Source: a virus
Lineage: Duplodnaviria; Caudoviricetes
Reading direction: 5' to 3' (one strand)
Virus record (IMG/VR): IMGVR_UViG_3300012232_000437
Location: 1-36,060 of that record
Length of the DNA stretch: 36,060 nucleotides
The notes under the pieces are model-generated. The model searched no databases and was not told the DNA's origin. It saw only the letters and a list, made by a program, of their open reading frames with translations. Position 1 is the stretch's first letter. Every line of letters starts with the position of its first letter. This document shows positions 3,816 to 26,920 of the stretch, piece after piece. Both the position numbers and the translations under genes were made by a program.

Positions 3816-3837
3816 AACCCCTATGCTATAAAGAGAG

Positions 3838-3922
3838 TGCCCCGGCCGGGGGTCGGACCCGGACGACCTGGAAGGTCACCCGCGTGCAAGGCGGGCCTGT
3901 CTACCAATTCAAGCACCGGGGC
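3838..3922 (-). tRNA. Class II tRNA with tRNA-Leu-like body and UGC (Ala) anticodon
   Basis: Acceptor GCCCCGG/CCGGGGC plus A73; D region CTTGAATTGGTAGACAG; anticodon stem CCCGC/GCGGG with loop CTTGCAC; variable arm GACCT-TCC-AGGTC; T arm CCGGG-TCCGACC-CCCGG; no encoded CCA. Confidence 0.85.
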
Positions 3923-5332: not shown

Positions 5333-6340
5333 ATGGTCAAGAACACATCCCCAGTGCTGAATGCATTGAAGTTGGCGGCCGTCAGCGAAGGCGCTGCCGT
5401 CGCGTTTCTCGAACAACAGCGATGGGGCGATGCACCCGCGTGTCCGTGGTGCGGCGATACCGACGTCTATCAAATGAAGGACGCGAGCGGGCAGCGGAAC
5501 AAAGACTATCGCTGGCGTTGTAAGGGCTGTAAGCGAATGTATACGGTTCGCATCGGTACGATCTTCGAGGAAACACGTTTGCCACTGCGCGTGTGGGTGT
5601 ATGCGTTCTGGCGCGCATGTGCGAGCAAGAAAGGCATCTCCGCGTTGCAGCTTGCGCGCGAGATGGAGATCACGCATAAGTCCGCGCTGTTCGTGCTTCG
5701 TCGTATCAGGCACGGCCTCAGCACCGACATCGACAGCACGCCAAAACTCACAGGCTCTGTCGAAGCGGACGAGACGTACATCGGTGGTCGCCCGCGTCGG
5801 TACTTCGGATACAGCAAGAAGCACAAGCCCGGACCAGCTGATAAGACTCCCGTTGTCGGTGTCGTGCAGCGTGGCGGCGACGTGCGGTTCCGCATGTTGG
5901 ATCGCGTCACGTCTGATCGACTTGAAGAATTCCTCGCAGAGAACGCGGACCACACGTGCCGACTGATTACCGATCAGTACTCAGGCTATGCACGTGTCGG
6001 GCAGAAGTTCGCAGGCGGACACGAGTCAGTCAAGCACGTGATCGGTGAGTACGTCCGCAAGGGCACCGACATTCACAGCAACACGATTGAGGGCGTCTTC
6101 TCGCTGATCAAGCGCGGCGTGATGGGCACGTTCCACAGCGTCAGCAAGAAGCACCTGCCGAACTATCTGAACGAGTTTGAATTTCGGTGGAACACGCGCA
6201 AGCTGGACGACGGTCAGCGCATCACGCGTGCGATTCGTCAGGTGGAAGGGAAGCGCTTGGAGTATCGCGAGTCCGTTGATAACCCGCCGTACCTGCCGCA
6301 GTTCAAGGGGCAGGCACCGGCACCATTCGAGGGCGAGTGA
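5333..6340 (+). CDS. IS1595-family (ISXO2-like) DDE transposase
   Basis: Zn ribbon CPWCG..WRCKGC, GISALQLARE, EADETY, ITDQY, HSNTIEGVFS, YLNEFEFRWN. Confidence 0.95.
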   Translation: MVKNTSPVLNALKLAAVSEGAAVAFLEQQRWGDAPACPWCGDTDVYQMKDASGQRNKDYRWRCKGCKRMYTVRIGTIFEETRLPLRVWVYAFWRACASKKGISALQLAREMEITHKSALFVLRRIRHGLSTDIDSTPKLTGSVEADETYIGGRPRRYFGYSKKHKPGPADKTPVVGVVQRGGDVRFRMLDRVTSDRLEEFLAENADHTCRLITDQYSGYARVGQKFAGGHESVKHVIGEYVRKGTDIHSNTIEGVFSLIKRGVMGTFHSVSKKHLPNYLNEFEFRWNTRKLDDGQRITRAIRQVEGKRLEYRESVDNPPYLPQFKGQAPAPFEGE

Positions 6341-8082: not shown

Positions 8083-8559
8083 CTACGACTCGCGCTCGGC
8101 GTGTGATTTTGTATTGGCTTCGCCGCGTCTCCCCGGACGCCGTGTCGCCTCGCGCAACAGCTCGTCCAGCTTCTGCACATCGGCGGCGTTGAGCAACCGG
8201 ATACGCTGCAGCCGCGCCACTTCCTCAGGCTCCAACGAGACGACCAGATGTGGCGGGGCGTCTGCGAGCAGGCGCAGGGCGCTGATGCGACGGTCCTTGC
8301 CGCTGCGGCGTGGTGTCCCCTTGCTCCGTCGCTCGGTGAGCGGAGTGATCCCGGGCTGCAATAGCTGATACGTCGCGATGCCGAAGAAGTCTGCAATGCG
8401 ATCGAAGTATTGCATCGGAAATTCGCGCCGGTCCTCCCGCATGATCTTGCTGATCCAACTCTCGGTGCGCCGACACCACTGAGCGAGGTCCTTGCGCGTT
8501 TGTCCGCGCGCTCGCAACAGCGCGTCGATGTTGGACTTCATTAGCGAATTCGCCCGCAT
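8083..8559 (-). CDS. CI-like phage repressor (XRE HTH)
   Basis: GQTRKDLAQWCRRTESWISKIM...FDRIADFFGIATYQLL; divergent from a Cro-like gene; start uncertain (8559 or 8541). Confidence 0.8.
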   Translation of the reverse strand: MRANSLMKSNIDALLRARGQTRKDLAQWCRRTESWISKIMREDRREFPMQYFDRIADFFGIATYQLLQPGITPLTERRSKGTPRRSGKDRRISALRLLADAPPHLVVSLEPEEVARLQRIRLLNAADVQKLDELLREATRRPGRRGEANTKSHAERES

Positions 8560-8631
8560 ACGCCTGCCAAGTTCTATCACCAGATCGCATGGCACACTGG
8601 CAAGTCATTTGTAGATTGTATTGATTCTTAG

Positions 8632-8649
8632 CTTGACACGGGTGTCAAG
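8632..8649. promoter_or_regulatory. Palindromic operator candidate in the CI/Cro gap
   Basis: CTTGACAC-GG-GTGTCAAG, perfect 8-bp inverted repeat containing TTGACA on both strands. Confidence 0.65.
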
Positions 8650-8668
8650 TGCTGTTTGACTAGGCAGC

Positions 8669-8926
8669 GTGAAGAACGGACCAGAACAACTCAAAGACTG
8701 GATGCACCGGCGCCGGTTCATGCAAATGGAAATGGCTGACTATCTGGGCTGGGATGAGACGTACGTCTCGCGCATCCTGACCGGCGCCCGCGTCCCCGGA
8801 CTGGACAACGCCATCCACTTGGAACGCAAGACCGGGATCCCTGTGGAGGTCTGGGCGTCCAGTGAACTTGACAACGACGAAGTCGCCGCTGTGGCAACCG
8901 GCCGTAAACCCCGATTGTCCAAGTAG
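8669..8926 (+). CDS. Cro-like HTH regulator
   Basis: QMEMADYLGWDETYVSRILTGARVPGLDNAIHLERKTGIPVEVW. Confidence 0.85.
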   Translation: MKNGPEQLKDWMHRRRFMQMEMADYLGWDETYVSRILTGARVPGLDNAIHLERKTGIPVEVWASSELDNDEVAAVATGRKPRLSK

Positions 8927-13063: not shown

Positions 13064-13368
13064 TGGCCGAGTGTTCCTTTCCGGGCTGTCTCGGCGGCGA
13101 GTTCTGTCACGTCCACGCCAACCGCCTTGGGAAGCCGTGCCCGACGTGTCGGGGCAAGGGAGTTCGTTGGTACAGCAAGCAGAACGCGACGATGCCGTGT
13201 CTTTGGTGCGGCGGCACTGGCCTCAAGGACAGCTCGAAGCGACCGGCGAAGGCCGACGTGGTGCCGGTGGAGCAGCGCGGCATCATTCAGATTGCGGGCG
13301 AGCCAGAGCCCGGCCCTGACGCGTCAACGCTGGCGGAGTCAGAAACAATCAACGAGCGCTGGAGGTAG
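13063..13368 (+). CDS. Zn-finger protein with DnaJ-type CxxCxGxG repeats
   Basis: CPTCRGKG and CLWCGGTG. Confidence 0.65.
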   Translation: MAECSFPGCLGGEFCHVHANRLGKPCPTCRGKGVRWYSKQNATMPCLWCGGTGLKDSSKRPAKADVVPVEQRGIIQIAGEPEPGPDASTLAESETINERWR

Positions 13369-13370
13369 CG

Positions 13371-13589
13371 ATGGAGTGTGACGCGGTCGAACCTGACGAG
13401 GGCACTATCCGTCGTGTCCCCGCGCGCCATGCCGAGCGCCCACTTGATCCTCCGGGCTGGTGGTTCGAAGGGCCGTATGCCCAGCGCGAAGGGTTCACTG
13501 AACGGGCGCGGAGGTTGTTCGAGTCACGGCAGATGGAGGCCTTGTCGGGGATTCAGTATCAGAACGCGGCGAAGCACAGGACGTTATGA
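13371..13589 (+). CDS. Hypothetical protein
   Basis: GGAGG RBS; ATGA coupling to next gene. Confidence 0.5.
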   Translation: MECDAVEPDEGTIRRVPARHAERPLDPPGWWFEGPYAQREGFTERARRLFESRQMEALSGIQYQNAAKHRTL

Positions 13590-13912
13590 GCAGAAAGTAT
13601 CAACACCGCAAGGATCGCAACCATGCGGCGATCGCGAAGGGCATCGAAGCGCGCGGCCAAGGATTCATCGACACCAGCCAAACCGGGCTCGGCTTCGACG
13701 GCTTGGTGACGGTGGGCTGTCCGACGTGCGGCGGCAAACTCGCGCCGGTGGAGATCAAGGATCCGAGTTCGTCTCGCGGGCTGACGTTATCACCCAAGGA
13801 AGAGAAGGTCCACGCCGCGCTGAAGGCGCACGGGATCCACATCACGATCCTGACGTGCGAGGCGGATCTGGACGTACTGGGGCGCGTGCATCAGGGGCGC
13901 CGCGAAGGGTAG
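13586..13912 (+). CDS. VRR-NUC-like PD-(D/E)xK nuclease (resolvase-like)
   Basis: RKDRNHAAI..G..GFDGLV...VEIKD...LSPKE. Confidence 0.7.
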   Translation: MSRKYQHRKDRNHAAIAKGIEARGQGFIDTSQTGLGFDGLVTVGCPTCGGKLAPVEIKDPSSSRGLTLSPKEEKVHAALKAHGIHITILTCEADLDVLGRVHQGRREG

Positions 13913-13961
13913 GCCGTGTAGGTGAGGCCGTCATGCAGTGGCGGCTGAAGTGAAGCAAGAA

Positions 13962-14170
13962 ACGTGTAGAGCCGCTTGGGCGGCTCGGTTGGTGCCCAGG
14001 GGAGTAGGGATTGACGACTTGCGTGCAGGGGCAGTGCCTGCGCCTAGTGGATGGCTCCGCTAGTTCCTCCCCGGACGAAACCCGAAAGAATTAGCGCCGC
14101 TGAGCGCAGGGCACCGACCGCAGTTATCAGCGTAACACGTAGGCCCCTCAACTGTCGCGAAATGTTGAGG
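13962..14170 (+). ncRNA. Candidate multi-stem structured RNA upstream of the replication gene
   Basis: Nested stems ACGTGT/ACACGT, CGGTTGGTGCCC/GGGCACCGACCG, GGGGAG/CTCCCC and several hairpins; mismatches read as G-U on the + strand. Confidence 0.6.
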
Positions 14171-14218
14171 TTAATCCAAAAGTCGGAGTGTCTTTACGCA
14201 TAAGTACAGAAGCAGAAA

Positions 14219-14557
14219 ATGAAGAACAGTTCTTCAGATCCAGACTTCGAGCGATTTTGGGAGAGCTACCCGCATCGGGTAGCAAAGCTGGCCGCGATGA
14301 GAGCATTCGTTAAAGCAAAAAAACGCGCGAGCCTGATCGAAATTTTGGCCGGCGTGCTGCGGTATCGGCAGCACAAGCCCGCCTACGCAGAGTGGGCGCA
14401 CCCGGCCACGTGGTTGAACGCGGGCCGTTGGATGGACGAGTACGAGGGCACCAAACCTCGCGACCGCTGGGCCTGCCCGCACGTTGATCGATGCAGCAAT
14501 CGCGAGCAGTGCGGCCACGCGACCATTCTGGGCCGACCCGTGAAGGTGCGCGCGTGA
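14219..14557 (+). CDS. Short phage replication protein (initiator C-terminal-domain type)
   Basis: FERFWESYPHRVAKLAAMRAF...HPATWLNAGRWMDE. Confidence 0.75.
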   Translation: MKNSSSDPDFERFWESYPHRVAKLAAMRAFVKAKKRASLIEILAGVLRYRQHKPAYAEWAHPATWLNAGRWMDEYEGTKPRDRWACPHVDRCSNREQCGHATILGRPVKVRA

Positions 14558-14820
14558 AGACCAAGGACTACGCCCCAACGTGCGGGAGTTGCGGCGCGAC
14601 GGCGACGAAGATGACGCGTGCTGGCCTACCGCGGTGCCAGGCCTGTTACGACCAGATTGGGATCTGCCGATTGCCGCGTGGGTGCGAGGACATCGTGGTA
14701 CGCGAGGAGCTGCCCGGCGTGCCGCGCGAGCAGGCCACGGTAATCCGGCCGGACTTCTCGGTGGCGGGGATGATGGCGAAAGACTTTAGGGCTCGAAGGG
14801 CTGGCGACGATGCCGCGTAA
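14554..14820 (+). CDS. Zn-finger hypothetical protein
   Basis: GTGA coupling; CGSC..CQAC. Confidence 0.55.
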   Translation: MKTKDYAPTCGSCGATATKMTRAGLPRCQACYDQIGICRLPRGCEDIVVREELPGVPREQATVIRPDFSVAGMMAKDFRARRAGDDAA

Positions 14821-15184
14821 GTGGGATCGCACACGTATCGGCACGCTCTGCCCGGTGTGCCAAATCAATCCGATCAAGCACCCGTGGTCGAAGACGTGCA
14901 GCCGGGCCTGTGGCGCTTACACACGCGTGGACGCCGAGCAGCGGCGCGCCTATCTCGAGCGGGCGCGGGCACGGTATCGGCAGACCTACCGCGAGCGGGT
15001 CCGCGCGTTCGTGCAGGGCGAGATCGACGCGCTCGAAGGGCTCGGCCGGCCGATCACGCGCAACGACCTCCACAAGGCGATGCTGAACGTGTATCGACGA
15101 GCGTACACCCGCGGCGTGCATTACGAATTGAATCGGTGGAAGTCGGGACTAGCTGGGTCGCGATCGGAAAAGGTCGCGGGATGA
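14810..15184 (+). CDS. Zn-finger hypothetical protein
   Basis: CPVC..CSRAC followed by a basic helix. Confidence 0.6.
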   Translation: MPRKWDRTRIGTLCPVCQINPIKHPWSKTCSRACGAYTRVDAEQRRAYLERARARYRQTYRERVRAFVQGEIDALEGLGRPITRNDLHKAMLNVYRRAYTRGVHYELNRWKSGLAGSRSEKVAG

Positions 15185-15551
15185 CGATCCAGCGAGCGAG
15201 AGGGCAGGCGTCATGAGTGAGAGAATCCCAATCACGGGCGAACAGGTAAGGGCGGGGCGCTCGTCGTTGGGCTGCTACCAGCATCTACCGACCTTCAGTG
15301 GTGGCACGACGACGTGATCGGCCACGCGAAAGAGTTGCGGTGGCTGCGCGGGCGGGTTCGGTTTCTGACTGGTGGGCCGTATCGGGCGAGCGGGTTTTTC
15401 TCGTCGGTGATTGTGATTTGGGATCTAAGGGTGAACCCATGACTGATGCCTCTTCCGCCTCTCTCGTGAGCCCACAAAGGAATTGGATACGCGCGTGGTC
15501 GGCCACTATCCACGGAGTGAGGACCGCAGGGATCTACCGCAAGGGACAGTC

Positions 15552-15710
15552 ATGGCTGATTCGGTCACGCGGATAAAGCGACGGCACCGGGTCGAAGCGA
15601 AGCGCTTGCGCGGCGAGTGTCGGTATTGCCACCGTCCGGCAGCTCCGTTCACGCGCTGCGAGAAGCACCGGCGCGAGGCGGCGTATTGGAAGGGGCAGTA
15701 CGGTCGGTGA
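15552..15710 (+). CDS. Small Zn-finger protein
   Basis: CRYC..RCEKH; coupled to next gene. Confidence 0.55.
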   Translation: MADSVTRIKRRHRVEAKRLRGECRYCHRPAAPFTRCEKHRREAAYWKGQYGR

Positions 15711-16477: not shown

Positions 16478-16702
16478 ATGACCGACGAACGCGGTGGCGC
16501 AAGTCCTTCGAGCGTAGCACTCCCGGAGTCTCGCGACTCTCACTCTTCGTCTCCTGATCCCTCTCTCGTGAGCCAGGTGGAAGCCCTGATTAAGAAATTC
16601 AGTTGGCAAGTGACGCTGCTTGAAGTGTGGTGTGCTGAGCAGGAACTAAACAACAAGAATGTCGATTTTCCGCGCGGGTGCCAGTCAGCGCGCCTGGTCT
16701 GA
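16478..16702 (+). CDS. Hypothetical protein with Ser-rich repeat leader
   Basis: GGAG RBS; contains the repeat core. Confidence 0.45.
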   Translation: MTDERGGASPSSVALPESRDSHSSSPDPSLVSQVEALIKKFSWQVTLLEVWCAEQELNNKNVDFPRGCQSARLV

Positions 16703-17000
16703 CGACGCTGGATATTCGAGTGCGCGGCCTCTATCTGGACAACCCGAGATATTGGCCGACGCCAGTGGCGCGCGACTTCAAGTATCCAGGCCGCAGCCGA
16801 AAGGAACGGACGGGATCTTCAACGGGGGAGTGCTTGCCGCAGATAGTTGGTGGCGCACTGAACCCGACGTGGGTCGAGTGGCTCATGGGGTACCCAACCG
16901 AGTGGACCGCCTTAAAGGATTGGGGAACGCGATCGTCCCGCAGATCGCGGAGTGGATCGGCCGGCGCATCCTCGAAGCCGAAAGACAAGTGACGCCATGA
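16659..17000 (+). pseudogene. C-terminal remnant of a C5 cytosine DNA methyltransferase, coded in two frames
   Basis: One frame has RLKGLGNAIVPQIAEWIG (motif X); the overlapping frame 16678-16992 has WPTP..LNPTWVEWLMGYP (motif IX-like); no FxGxG or PC motifs seen upstream. Confidence 0.75.
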
Positions 17001-17063
17001 CTGATGCCTCTTCCGCCTCTCTCGTGAGCCGCAACGAAGTGAAGGGCTTGGACGGAGACAGTG

Positions 17064-17270
17064 ATGCTGAGTGAGAAACGACGGCTCGCGTTGGTTCTGA
17101 TCGATTTGGCCTATCAAGGCCGAGATCGGTGCTCGCTTGGTTTTGGGAAGTATCCGCTTGGGATTCGCGAGGCGATTAAACATTTGTATCCGCTGGTGCC
17201 CGCTGATGATCCAGCGCTGCCCGATCTCGATAAAGCGATCTCAGCGTTCGATCTGAGGTTGGCGGAATGA
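17064..17270 (+). CDS. Hypothetical protein
   Basis: 68 aa after GGAG; ends in ATGA at a repeat copy. Confidence 0.55.
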   Translation: MLSEKRRLALVLIDLAYQGRDRCSLGFGKYPLGIREAIKHLYPLVPADDPALPDLDKAISAFDLRLAE

Positions 17271-17391
17271 CTGCGCCTTCTCCCCTCTCTCGTGAGCCCA
17301 CAAAGAAGGAAACCTTCACGCGCGTGGGCGGCCACTATCCATGGAGTGAGAACGGACAGGGTCTACCGCATCGAGGCAACGAGGTAATTCG

Positions 17392-17757
17392 ATGAGCTAC
17401 GTCTACCCAGAGGATGAAGACCTCAAGCGCGTTGCGGAGCACAAATGCGAGTGGCTCAACGACGGAAAGCACCCGGTGTTCTCGCCGTGGTTCGCGCTGA
17501 TCAAGTCGATGTGGTGGATGCCTGATTGGGGCTGGCACGAATTCGACGGCTTTGACGATGGCGATCCTGTGCGCGTGCTGAATATTTCGACGGGCGGATG
17601 GAGCGGCAACGAGAGCCTCATCGGCGCGATGCGTCAGAACTTCATCGGATGGTCGATGACCTTTTACAGCATAAGGCGCGGCGGTCACTACGAGTTCCGC
17701 TTCCCGCGGTTGGTGGAATCACCACAGTCCGGACCCCACGGTCGGGGAGGATGTTGA
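17392..17757 (+). CDS. Trp-rich hypothetical phage protein
   Basis: GAGG RBS; STGGWSGNESLIGAM..RGGHYEF motif. Confidence 0.7.
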   Translation: MSYVYPEDEDLKRVAEHKCEWLNDGKHPVFSPWFALIKSMWWMPDWGWHEFDGFDDGDPVRVLNISTGGWSGNESLIGAMRQNFIGWSMTFYSIRRGGHYEFRFPRLVESPQSGPHGRGGC

Positions 17758-19765: not shown

Positions 19766-20266
19766 TTATGCGGACGCGGTGCTAGCGACTTGCGGTGTTC
19801 TGTGCGATAGGCGTCGATAGTGATCCTCGATCAAGTCGTTCGAGATGACGCCCAAGCTGCCATGCATCGCCCGCTTAGTGAGATCCCACGGCGAGCCCTT
19901 CTGGTGGGTCAGCGCAGACAGCTGAACGCCCGTGTACGTATGGTAGGCGTTCCAGACCTGCTCCATCACCTTGCGCTCTCGACCATCGAACTCAATCGGC
20001 TGGTGTTGCGGGCAATCGGTAATGAACTTGCTCCCGAACTTCTTATAGCGGTGATAGACGGACGCGACCACCGGGCCGTATTGCCACGCCTCCACCTGCT
20101 CGGCAAACAATGGCCTACTGTGCAGTCCTAGCATCCAGCCGTGAGAGATGTAGACCATCTTCAACAGCTGCATGGGCGTAATGGGATCTTCCCGTGACAA
20201 CCACATGAAGTACTCCGCAACACGTTCAGCCGTATGACTCTTGGACACTAGAAGCGATCTTAGCAT
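19766..20266 (-). CDS. Panacea (SocA/DUF4065) antitoxin
   Basis: TPMQLLKMVYISHG, EAWQYGPVV, LSALTHQKGSPW. Confidence 0.92.
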   Translation of the reverse strand: MLRSLLVSKSHTAERVAEYFMWLSREDPITPMQLLKMVYISHGWMLGLHSRPLFAEQVEAWQYGPVVASVYHRYKKFGSKFITDCPQHQPIEFDGRERKVMEQVWNAYHTYTGVQLSALTHQKGSPWDLTKRAMHGSLGVISNDLIEDHYRRLSHRTPQVASTASA

Positions 20267-20571: not shown

Positions 20572-21417
20572 CTACGCCGCTTTCGCTTCGGCCGCATCAA
20601 GCAGCCCGATTATTTCCTCGACAGACCACACGCGATCCGTGAGGCCAGCAGCCATCGCAGGCGTACCGCCGAGCGCCTTCTGTGAACGCGCAAAGTTGTA
20701 GTGCATATAGTGCAGTGCCAGCGCGTGCTCGTGATTCTCGACCTTCTTGGAATGGCCGTTCGTCAAGCGCGTGAATCGGCGCATCGACATCCGCATCTGG
20801 AGATTCTGTCTCTCGATATAGCTGGTCGAAATGTGCTCGATGGCTGGATCGCCTGACACGACCTGCACCTTTGTCTCGATGCAGACTGCGGGCGCGTAGC
20901 GCTTCTCTGCGTTCGGGTCGCTCCCGTACACTTTTATCAATCTCGCGTAGTCGATCTCCGTGCCGAACGCCGCGTCGGTCGCTTCGAGATAGGCGTGGAG
21001 TCCATCCGTGGTGAGCTGCACGCGCGATGTGAGGCGCGCTGCAAGATCCTGCATGAACGGATACGCGGTTTCGGCAGTGCGACGGCCAACGACCCACGAC
21101 AGCACCAGCTTTGAATCCGCGCACTGGCCGACCCACGTCCACAGGTCACCGAATCCAAAAACACCCTTGTATTCCTGCGGCACGTTCTCTCGACGCGCGT
21201 AGCAGAACGACCAAATCTCATCGCACTGCACGCGCTTCGCTGGCACGTTGCGCACGTTCGCGTCGTGGAAGGCTTCGCACGCCGCGCCGAGGTCAACCAG
21301 CAGTTTGGTCACGGTGTTGATGGACACGCCAACCATGCGGGTGATGCTTCGCAGGCTGTTTCCCTCGACAAGGGCCTTCACGATTTGGACCCGCTTGGCC
21401 GTGCTCAACTTGTTCAT
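20572..21417 (-). CDS. IS1-like DDE transposase
   Basis: N-terminal HTH, QCDEIWSF, LTTDG, STSYIERQN..MRRFTRLTN; matching IR and target duplication. Confidence 0.92.
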   Translation of the reverse strand: MNKLSTAKRVQIVKALVEGNSLRSITRMVGVSINTVTKLLVDLGAACEAFHDANVRNVPAKRVQCDEIWSFCYARRENVPQEYKGVFGFGDLWTWVGQCADSKLVLSWVVGRRTAETAYPFMQDLAARLTSRVQLTTDGLHAYLEATDAAFGTEIDYARLIKVYGSDPNAEKRYAPAVCIETKVQVVSGDPAIEHISTSYIERQNLQMRMSMRRFTRLTNGHSKKVENHEHALALHYMHYNFARSQKALGGTPAMAAGLTDRVWSVEEIIGLLDAAEAKAA

Positions 21418-25212: not shown

Positions 25213-25719
25213 GTGGCGATGAAGACGCGCGCGGCAAAAATTGCCAAGGCCAAGGCCGGGATCCTGCTCGATCTGTCGCTCGGCGGCACGCCACAGCCGA
25301 ATAGCGTGACGTGTGCCGACCTGAAGATCGATCCGCGCAAGCCGAAGTTTCTGTTGCCGACGGGATCGGTGCATACCTGCGTCGCGACACACATCCTCGA
25401 GTATGTCGAACCGACACAGGTCTGGCAGTGGTTCGATGAGCTCCACCGGGTGATGCGGCCGGGCGGCACGGTGTATTTCTCCGGGCCGTATGGCGGCGAT
25501 GAGTCAGCAGGCTGGGTGTCGGATCCCTCGCATCGTGTGCGGATCACTGAGGGCACTTTTGCGTGGTTGGATCCGCGCCTACCTTTTTTCCAGCAGCACC
25601 CTGACGTGGGACGAAAACTGCCGAAGCCGTGGCATGTGCTGCAGGCGACTCGTGCGCCTGGGACGCATGGGACGACTACGTATCAGGTGGTCATGAGAAG
25701 CGCGAAGGCGTCTCAGTGA
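25213..25719 (+). CDS. Class I SAM methyltransferase-like protein
   Basis: LLDLSLGG, GSVHTCVATHILEYV, ELHRVMRPGG, SDPSHR. Confidence 0.75.
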   Translation: MAMKTRAAKIAKAKAGILLDLSLGGTPQPNSVTCADLKIDPRKPKFLLPTGSVHTCVATHILEYVEPTQVWQWFDELHRVMRPGGTVYFSGPYGGDESAGWVSDPSHRVRITEGTFAWLDPRLPFFQQHPDVGRKLPKPWHVLQATRAPGTHGTTTYQVVMRSAKASQ

Positions 25720-26051
25720 CGCGCTCGGTGCGCGCTGGCATCGGCGCGATTCTCGTGACGCTGTCCGGCGGTTCGATGCCGTGGGTGGTGGGGATCGATC
25801 GCGTCGTCCGGCTCGATCAATACATGGACGGCAAGCCTATCTGGTTTCGCGTCTGCACCGATGGGCCGTTTGGATCGTGTGAGGAGTCGCCGCACTACAC
25901 CGGGGTGGCTGGGACGGTGCAGCATTTCGATCTCCCGATGCGGTTCCGGCCTGGGCGCAAGACCGTGACCGTGGAGAGCTGCAACGCGGATGGGTGCGCG
26001 ATGCCGGTCGTAGTCGAGGCTGAGATTCCGATCCAGTGGGAGTTGCCGTGA
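25716..26051 (+). CDS. Small exported beta-sandwich-like protein
   Basis: Hydrophobic N-terminus; PGRKTVTVESCNADGC. Confidence 0.5.
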   Translation: MTRSVRAGIGAILVTLSGGSMPWVVGIDRVVRLDQYMDGKPIWFRVCTDGPFGSCEESPHYTGVAGTVQHFDLPMRFRPGRKTVTVESCNADGCAMPVVVEAEIPIQWELP

Positions 26052-26920
26052 GCGTGGTAGCACCAGCGGTTCCTGGCTATTGCGTGGATGCGACATGTGT
26101 CTGCCATCGTGGACTGGAATGGTCAGATGGTTCTAACACGCCAGTCACGGGCATCGATTTCACCGCCTCCGGTCTGCCGCTCGGATGCTGCCCGCGGTGC
26201 GGCCGTCGTGGCCCCAAGCCCACCACGATCGTCTTACCGCCCACGCTCATCTCCTTCGAGGATATGGAGGCGCGCGTCAAGGCGACTCGTGAGCAGCACG
26301 ACCGCACGCTGCAGGACTTCCACAAGGTCTGGTACGAGAGCGGTCACACGTGGGTGTGGACCAGTTTTCTTGGCGTCGGGATGATGAAGAACCCGATGGA
26401 CCTGTGGGTCTATCAGGAGCTCATGACAAAGTTGCGGCCGAAGACCATCGTCGAGACCGGCACGTTTGCTGGCGGCTCGGCGCTGTGGTTTGCCGTGCTG
26501 ATGGATGCGCTAGGGATTGATGACGGCCGGGTGATCACGATCGACCTCGACGATCACCGGAAGTGCCAGCATGACCGGATTACGTTTGTCGCGGGTGACT
26601 CAACGAGTCCCGCCCTAGTTGCGGCAGTTATGGCTGAGGTGGAACACCCGCTGCTCATTTCCCTCGATGCCGATCACTCTGCGGCGCATGTCCGCAAAGA
26701 GCTAGACCTCTATGCGCCGCATGTGCAGGTCGGGGAATACCTGGTCGTCGAGGACACCAACATCTCGTGGGACGACGAGCCGGGGGCGCGTGGCGGGCTG
26801 GAGTCCTATCTGCTGGCGCATCCGGGGGAGTTTCGGCAGGACATGCTCTGTGAGCATTACCTCTTGAGTTGCCATCCTGGGGGTTGGATTCAGCGCATCG
26901 TGGAGTGTCGCCATGCCTAA
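26048..26920 (+). CDS. CmcI (cephalosporin hydroxylase / rhamnosyl O-methyltransferase) family protein
   Basis: FLGVGMMKNPMDLWVYQE, IVETGTFAGGSALW, LDADHSAAHV, YLVVEDT; Cys-rich N-terminal extension. Confidence 0.9.
   Translation: MSVVAPAVPGYCVDATCVCHRGLEWSDGSNTPVTGIDFTASGLPLGCCPRCGRRGPKPTTIVLPPTLISFEDMEARVKATREQHDRTLQDFHKVWYESGHTWVWTSFLGVGMMKNPMDLWVYQELMTKLRPKTIVETGTFAGGSALWFAVLMDALGIDDGRVITIDLDDHRKCQHDRITFVAGDSTSPALVAAVMAEVEHPLLISLDADHSAAHVRKELDLYAPHVQVGEYLVVEDTNISWDDEPGARGGLESYLLAHPGEFRQDMLCEHYLLSCHPGGWIQRIVECRHA

Follow-up and report, generated by a model that had tools for sequence, protein, structure and literature searches.

What stands in for the N-terminal half of a replication initiator when a phage encodes only the C-terminal domain? 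The question is raised by an IMG/VR virus record from freshwater sediment, which was analysed over its full 36,060 bases (the window; estimated completeness 68%). Its layout resembles that of lambdoid temperate phages: a cI/cro switch spanning 8086-8926, with the repressor at 8086-8595 on the - strand and a cro-like gene at 8669-8926, is followed by Erf and YqaJ exonuclease genes and then by small rightward genes. Within this early rightward operon, at the position where relatives encode a replication initiator, an intergenic gap of about 306-318 nt (13913-14218) separates a 108-aa gene (13586..13912, + strand) from a gene of 112 aa (14219..14557, + strand). An initial reading made from the letters alone (the sequence-only reading) had put this gap at about 300 nt, in good agreement with its measured length, had described nested stems within it, and had offered three explanations: an RNA-dependent origin, a cis-regulatory leader, or a new class of non-coding RNA.

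The short initiator gene and its surroundings

The 112-aa protein corresponds to the C-terminal domain of phage replication initiators, encoded here on its own with four helices and a Cys/His tail, and carries the F..FW..YP / HPATWLN motifs of that domain. It matched only the C-terminal part of initiator profiles (PHROGs 270, 9474 and 9327; for phrog_270, positions 174-255 of 383, E 6e-15), bearing out the earlier view that the gene is of the initiator C-terminal type only. The Atlas gives the domain as PF28946, which is elsewhere fused to HTH_36, DUF1376 or DUF6291; searches of Pfam and NCBIfam with the 112-aa protein returned no match. A model of the protein (pLDDT 80.7) gave weak fold matches to G39P-N (Z 5.2; 1no1, rmsd 2.6, 59 aligned) and to DnaD-C (Z 4.7; 2zc2, rmsd 3.1, 63 aligned), both tied with unrelated rows, and no match in Foldseek.

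A search for proteins of like length returned 31 short relatives, in many of which the start lies no more than a few residues from the F..FW motif; among longer relatives, HTH_36 was present in 4 of 13 and DUF1376 in one of 13. The fetched loci yielded 174 distinct domain sequences (131 full-length, 36 short and 7 at contig edges), the short label being assigned by an automatic rule that is doubtful in 5 of the 36, and the set being biased, as several scans targeted the short clade. From these a quick tree was built (151 rows, only 79 columns), leaving out three mis-anchored sequences (L292, L295 and L305), contig-edge rows and duplicates, and with L317 and L332 relabelled as full-length. The window fell in a clade of 16 short and two nested full-length forms (SH-aLRT 82). 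Seven changes of label were needed on this tree, at least four of them forced by well-supported branches, compared with 27.5 for shuffled labels, indicating that the short form is a stable lineage that has arisen or reverted several times.

When 123 initiator N-termini were used as queries (tblastn, E 0.01), none matched either the window or G404, a complete phage (100%) that carries a different element at the same slot (family B, below). No repeat family of more than two copies was detected in 13800-14700, consistent with the initial impression that neither an N-terminal HTH nor iterons are obvious. Nor did 72 hand-picked ORFs, of 133 candidates in G404, include a helicase, primase, polymerase or full initiator. 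The window thus shares with full-length initiators (PHROG 270/9474; PF28946 fusions) the same C-terminal domain at the same operon position, but has a structured element in place of their N-terminal domain and linker.

The 108-aa upstream gene is nuclease-like by eye, with what we take to be a VRR-NUC-type motif, and profile-library searches with it gave no match. Because the stretch is present within one contig in each of two runs (X1 and X2, either of which may be where the record came from), and because 13940-14158 is present with zero differences in a groundwater run from a separate study (X3), this DNA is not an assembly artefact. Elsewhere in the window we noted an IS1595-type transposase gene (5333-6340), a relative of which is also found in G404, an IS1-type transposase gene (20572-21417, - strand), a SocA/Panacea antitoxin-domain gene (19766-20266, - strand), and, ahead of the late region, methyltransferase genes (25213-26920), one of them CmcI/rhamnosyl O-methyltransferase-like. 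Two overlapping frames at 16659-17000 both match DNA-methyltransferase profiles, which suggests a frameshifted or partial gene. Near-repeated short gene starts, which open with a Ser-rich stretch and continue into a shared motif, recur in the early region (15438-15576, 17000-17060 and 17267-17395). A tRNA-Ala called by ARAGORN at 3837-3922 (- strand) lies within a long ORF and is probably spurious.

The structured element and its homolog

At the upstream end of the gap lies a separate conserved 40-nt piece (13910..13953, + strand) that contains a hairpin (13926-47) and a strong ribosome-binding site preceding a six-codon ORF (13933-13953), whose stop shares bases with a GTG from which a 38-codon frame runs on into the element. 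Near-identical copies of this piece occur in two other studies, in contigs of one soil and one sediment run, one copy having unrelated flanks on both sides. It is absent from the homologous locus described below, was not found in 391 Acidobacteriota genomes, and had no significant match in GenBank phages. The piece may be a portable translational-coupling device.

Beyond it lies the element itself (family A), a predicted RNA of about 235 nt (13962..14196, + strand) that is supported by its fold, by its homolog on contig L268 and by covariation between the two. Its architecture comprises an outer helix, a multi-branch core, a 3' hairpin, two pseudoknots and a conserved 3' box, all on the + strand. 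The outer helix, P1 (13962-67/14135-40), has 6 bp and encloses the P2 hairpin (13969..13986); P3 (13986-97/14109-20; 12 bp, one G-U), with a conserved core at 13991-97/14109-15; P4 (13999-14004/14067-72; 6 bp), with a G-rich 5' strand; the hairpins P5 (14023..14043), which has a conserved G-rich loop, and P6 (14044..14063); and the small P7 hairpin (14094..14107; 4 bp). The 3' hairpin, P8 (14146..14170), abuts the 3' strand of pseudoknot PK1 (14008-14/14171-77; 7 bp), and PK2 (14015-20/14180-85; 6 bp) is followed directly by an unpaired, TGTCT(C)TTA-like conserved box (14189..14196). There is no linker between the pseudoknots on the 5' side and one of two bases on the 3' side; PK1 and PK2 would coexist only side by side, or else alternate. 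Every stem and hairpin named in the sequence-only reading was recovered, and the non-Watson-Crick pairs in the window stems are indeed G-U on the + strand; that reading had missed PK1, PK2, P7, the 3' box and the six-codon ORF.

Folding energy by itself is only moderately unusual. The whole gap had a z of -2.15, with 4 of 100 shuffles equally good, and the core 13960-14142, whose ends were chosen around the structure, had a z of -3.98 on the + strand (0 of 200 shuffles) and -2.57 on the - strand. We therefore counted folding energy as modest support, and let covariation with L268 decide the case for the element. No sigma-70-like promoter was found in 13300-14900 (0.3 expected), the sigma-70 consensus possibly not being that of the host. 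Searches for a + strand terminator and for an antisense RNA promoter-like site were negative, and the one terminator-like site (- strand, 14107-14094) compares with 1.6 expected by chance. An RNA run (X4) had no contig over the element and was uninformative on expression.

L268, a Gemmatimonadales MAG contig that came from a scan of genome contigs, matches the window element with 73% identity over 205 bases (E 1.9e-23), and its element sits ahead of the same short gene, with Erf and YqaJ genes upstream as in the window. This single contig is the basis for taking Gemmatimonadota as the likely host group. Over ten helices and 62 pairs, with the registers of P1-P3 set by hand, 47 pairs are unchanged, 10 have changed on both sides, 4 on one side and 1 is broken; that is, 14 of the 15 changed pairs still pair, ten of them by double change. 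The double changes fall in P1 (two, with one single change), the 5-bp core of P2 (one), the 7-bp conserved core of P3 (two), P6 (two, with one single), P8 (two) and PK1 (one, from A-U to G-C, with one single), and P5 has a U-G to C-G change. In P4 five of the six pairs are unchanged and one is broken, and the counterpart of this helix in family B covaries between L090 and L098. P7 is invariant, as is PK2 in both sequences; PK2, without covariation of its own, had been proposed before L268 turned up. All four one-sided changes pass through G-U on the + strand, and none through A-C.

When the same 25 substitutions were scattered at random (200,000 trials), a mean of 17 pairs were broken, and one or fewer never. 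An alignment made by MAFFT without regard to structure, covering 44 pairs, still gave five double and three single changes and one broken pair, a result reached by 11 of 500 shuffles; slid controls were 31-44% paired. Covariation between these two sequences thus indicates a conserved, strand-specific structured element. One outcome that had been foreseen as fatal to the sequence-only reading, homologous loci devoid of the structure, is the opposite of what L268 presents. The unpaired columns are 60% identical (74/124), and the seven indels between window and L268 (sizes 1, 1, 1, 1, 2, 4 and 8) include no multiple of three.

The two loci differ around the element. In L268 the distance from box to start codon is 166 nt and contains 24-nt repeats. 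At 1847-1907, between element and short gene, 2.5 tandem copies of a 24-nt repeat occur together with a run of CG dinucleotides; these repeats, absent from the window, resemble the linker or iteron region of full-length initiators. The gene after the short initiator in L268 (2230-2746; L419 1191-1703, - strand) gave a weak lead to G39P_N, a helicase loader (score 0.88, family on 11% of members), unlike the window, where an unrelated Cys-rich gene holds this position. About 0.8 kb upstream of its element, the L268 contig also encodes a 65-aa HTH protein as a gene of its own (an HTH_36 match at E 6e-4, below the cut-off), which the window lacks.

Family A comprises these two members only. Rfam 15 gave no match on the window at gathering score, and at E 10 only two chance matches in L090 and none on family A; the motif is uncatalogued. 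No further member was found when the gap was compared by blastn with 50,697 phage records and 72,556 plasmid records, by motif scans of viral contigs (48, 7 and 8 matches), or in four additional sequencing runs. A DNA search of 401 Gemmatimonadota genomes for the element returned only G001. Protein searches matched 4 of those 401 genomes and 8 of 401 Acidobacteriota genomes, the latter all weak and with longer frames. A box-plus-domain pattern gave 110 matches, few of them short genes. The phage, plasmid, viral-contig and Gemmatimonadota collections searched gave no instance of the element apart from the short gene.

In the literature searched, we found no report of a structured RNA ahead of a headless phage initiator. 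Three short motifs of families A and B are absent from four supplementary files of PMC10690425, whose alignments and models may bear on novelty. RNA-based phage origins are already known; the pairing of the family A motif with a cut-down initiator was not found in print, as far as the accessible text of the sources goes.

Other elements at the same slot

Among members of the window clade the slot is filled by three or more elements that can replace one another, namely A (window and L268), B (L090, L098 and L009) and C (L093 and L091), and they do not follow the protein tree. Family B, supported by blastn (E 2e-32 and 0.004) and by covariance model R2, is an H-type pseudoknot with changes on both sides of its three helices, and it ends in the same TGTCT(C)TTA-like box; this box was found upstream of the short gene in the window, L268, L009, L089, L090, L098 and L108. 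Family C (L091 476-745; L093 about 1040-1320) is 69% identical over 297 columns (E 1e-30), with double changes in 6 of 65 predicted pairs. The element and the short gene are about 630 nt apart in L091, with an HNH-type ORF between them; in L093 such an ORF lies upstream of the element. The DNA upstream of the near-identical L091 and L094 proteins is unrelated, and a single branch unites L090, L091 and L094, whose elements differ.

Three short blocks occur in the same order in the window, L268, L090 and L098 and in no other upstream region among 204 loci, the blocks having been drawn from the very sequences compared; the covariance model of family A (R1) did not detect members of family B, nor did that of family B (R2) detect members of family A. 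On this sequence evidence, common descent of families A and B is plausible.

An adjacent gap is not universal in the clade: in 3 of the 16 short members (L011, L021 and L095), the 1.2-1.6 kb of upstream sequence available is gapless, its genes reaching as far as the short gene. Strong folding, moreover, is not specific to headless genes. A z of -3 or below in 150-nt windows upstream was reached in 6 of the 20 short loci that could be scanned in full (a further two had too little sequence) versus 9 of 22 full-length loci drawn from 104, and the PMC10690425 supplement lists candidate structured RNAs ahead of full-length DUF1376 and HTH_36 genes as well. Non-coding stretches assigned to none of the three families also precede window-clade short genes in L089 (about 400-860), L094 (1-190), L096 (770-1170; z -5.3, followed by a small gene) and L108 (1-200). 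Other initiators of freshwater phages have been independently shortened (the L048/L074/L078 group, L067, and L143/L186); upstream of them lie 260-460 nt of non-coding DNA, partly strongly folding (z down to -6) and without sequence relationship to family A.

Possible functions of the element

Of the explanations first offered, an RNA-dependent origin fits best, by inference. We tentatively favor the reading that the family A element acts as an RNA by which the replication origin of the phage is opened or primed, standing in for the origin-binding half missing from the neighboring initiator and working with a headless, putatively helicase-recruiting domain, and regard it as possible rather than probable; it draws on position, cassette exchange and precedent. 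Its starting points, the fold and its + strand polarity, the headless gene, the position, the exchange of elements and the tolerance of DNA between element and gene, are observations. Adjacency to the start codon is not required, because L091 has the HNH-type insertion and L268 the 166-nt spacing. The element would be transcribed with the early rightward operon from the cI/cro switch (8086-8926). Once the 3' end was made, the two pseudoknots would lock the fold and the transcript would stay paired to its template near the box, yielding an R-loop or primer, as with ColE1 RNA II. The short DnaD-C/G39P-like domain might then bind the displaced strand and recruit a host or phage helicase loader, in which case an iteron-binding HTH would not be needed.

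We counted in favor of this origin role the covariation, the + strand G-U pairs, the shared slot, the lack of any match to an initiator N-terminus elsewhere in the window or in G404, the cassette exchange, the weak G39P_N lead in L268 and the precedent of RNA-based phage origins. Counted against it were the two-member family, the hand-set P1-P3 registers, PK2 without covariation, the negative search for a sigma-70-type promoter, the gapless L011, L021 and L095, the non-specific folding strength, the weak fold matches, the separate HTH gene of L268, the 68% completeness of the window, and GC skew, which showed no switch at the element in the window or in G404.

The main rival is a cis-regulatory leader, whose pseudoknots would switch translation or transcription of the short gene, as in repZ/repA, possibly driven by translation of the tiny ORF. 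The six-codon ORF, which has a strong ribosome-binding site and overlaps the beginning of the 38-codon frame that enters the element, suits this idea, as do the distance from box to start (8-30 nt in six of seven loci, the window being at 30 nt), an in-frame GTG overlapping the box in L090 and L108, and an alternative partner for the PK1 5' strand in L268. A long-range pseudoknot that ends just upstream of a replication gene also recalls ColIb-P9 (PMC4705826, in its available part). The I-complex plasmids combine the ColIb-P9 repZ pseudoknot with a leader peptide and Inc RNA (accessible text of PMC4705826 and PMC10286972) and are alike in having such a pseudoknot upstream of the replication gene, but the window lacks a conserved leader peptide and its gene lacks the origin-binding half. 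The pseudoknot 3' strand does not lie immediately before the ribosome-binding site and start of the replication gene (from box to start, the window has 30 nt and L268 has 166 nt), and no conserved leader peptide ends at that start, the 50-codon ORF 14051-14203 being startless in L268 and broken by indels. With indels of 1, 1, 1, 1, 2, 4 and 8, no leader ORF is conserved between the two sequences; the start codon and the 30 nt upstream of it fall outside the conserved structure, and no + strand terminator was found. The 166-nt spacing in L268 and the HNH-type ORF that splits the family C element from its gene in L091 further weaken the leader, which also leaves origin recognition without an HTH unexplained, and we now consider it unlikely.

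Alternatively, the RNA could be a partner or scaffold of the short domain or of a host replication protein, giving origin recognition rather than a primer. The element occupies the place where full-length relatives encode the DNA-binding domain, its unpaired loops and box are conserved (60%, 74/124), and the modelled compact, doubly knotted fold is suggestive of tertiary structure. Elements and proteins, however, do not co-evolve, as the L091/L094 pair and the L090, L091 and L094 branch attest, and we judge a partnership distinctly unlikely.

The structure might instead form in single-stranded DNA, for instance as a primosome assembly site. DNA hairpins can accommodate G-T pairs, and the window core beats shuffles with DNA parameters too (z -2.95). 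The same option is raised for plasmid motifs in the available text of Weinberg 2017 (PMC5737381). L268, however, is not significant with DNA parameters (z -1.69, 8/100), and the two folds, which agree under RNA parameters, disagree under DNA parameters. Ten helices and two pseudoknots are, besides, more typical of RNA, and we judge the single-stranded DNA alternative improbable.

Slightly more improbable still is that the element is an RNA in its own right, a non-coding RNA or a ribozyme, whether self-cleaving or mobile, whose place in the operon is incidental. Elements at the slot do swap, one travels with an HNH-type gene, and double pseudoknots are known in ribozymes; yet no Rfam family matched family A even at E 10, and the short gene was always alongside in the collections searched. 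Specific ribozyme likenesses were tried and rejected. A group I intron has its P4-P6 domain between P3 and P7 and exons that join in frame; here only 10 nt lie between the 5' strands of P4 and PK2, too few for that domain, and there is no Rfam match. The 2 nt between the 3' strands of PK1 and PK2 are too small for the catalytic strand of an HDV-type ribozyme, and likenesses to group II domain V and RNase P, judged on short motifs, were dropped, the required domains being absent. Finally, a decayed or frameshifted 5' half of an initiator gene, which the sequence-only reading had named as its other possible undoing, would suit the slot and the linker-like repeats that persist in L268, but stops in all three frames of both sequences, no indel of three, no match for any of 123 N-terminal queries, the many relatives that begin a few residues before the domain, and conservation of pairing rather than codons leave it next to no chance.

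Precedents for the favored origin role differ from it in instructive ways. The available portions of PMC7157519 describe RNA-based prophage origins, needed for replication, in the cluster A mycobacteriophages Alma, LadyBird and RedRock, where, much as proposed here, a non-coding region replaces a rep gene among related phages. Those regions, on the same partial account, are without repA, lie beside parABS, are transcribed in the reverse direction and belong to plasmid prophages, whereas the window keeps a headless initiator domain directly downstream on the same strand, and its origin function is putative. Lactococcal Ceduovirus phages (c2, bIL67 and 923-type) have three mutually unrelated origin types, with a non-coding PE1 transcript, and so resemble our loci in carrying mutually unrelated cassettes at one slot; theirs sit between two promoters and require no phage proteins (PMC7150918, as far as its text was available), unlike the window cassette, which lies inside an operon before a short initiator gene and for which no promoter was found. 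Elements A, B and C are likewise interchangeable non-coding cassettes, as in RNA-based phage origins.

The proposed mode is shared with ColE1, in which a folded transcript on its template lets host proteins start replication (PMC3167613 and PMC7157519, available text). ColE1 differs in having no initiator protein, while the short domain is kept in all loci here, the loci having been found through that protein; no sequence likeness to ColE1 was shown, and neither a promoter nor an antisense RNA was found at the element. The plasmid motifs ARRPOF, GEBRO and PAGEV are also structured, span 223-349 nt and are tied to replication regions (accessible part of PMC5737381), but family A has no Rfam match, comes from a phage rather than a plasmid, and is found in different hosts.

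A broader proposal, which we consider doubtful, is that these loci represent a class of phage replicon in which interchangeable pseudoknotted RNAs and a retained C-terminal domain form a hybrid RNA-protein initiator that replaces the N-terminal domain. If it were true, the step that starts phage DNA replication would have passed from a protein domain to a structured RNA. The four to seven label changes on the tree would then mean that this swap took place more than once; known RNA-based origins are either initiator-free or not tied to a cut-down initiator. The module measures about 600 nt, and its defined helices come with natural compensatory variants. The weaker reading would still add an RNA family that has two pseudoknots and is so far uncatalogued.
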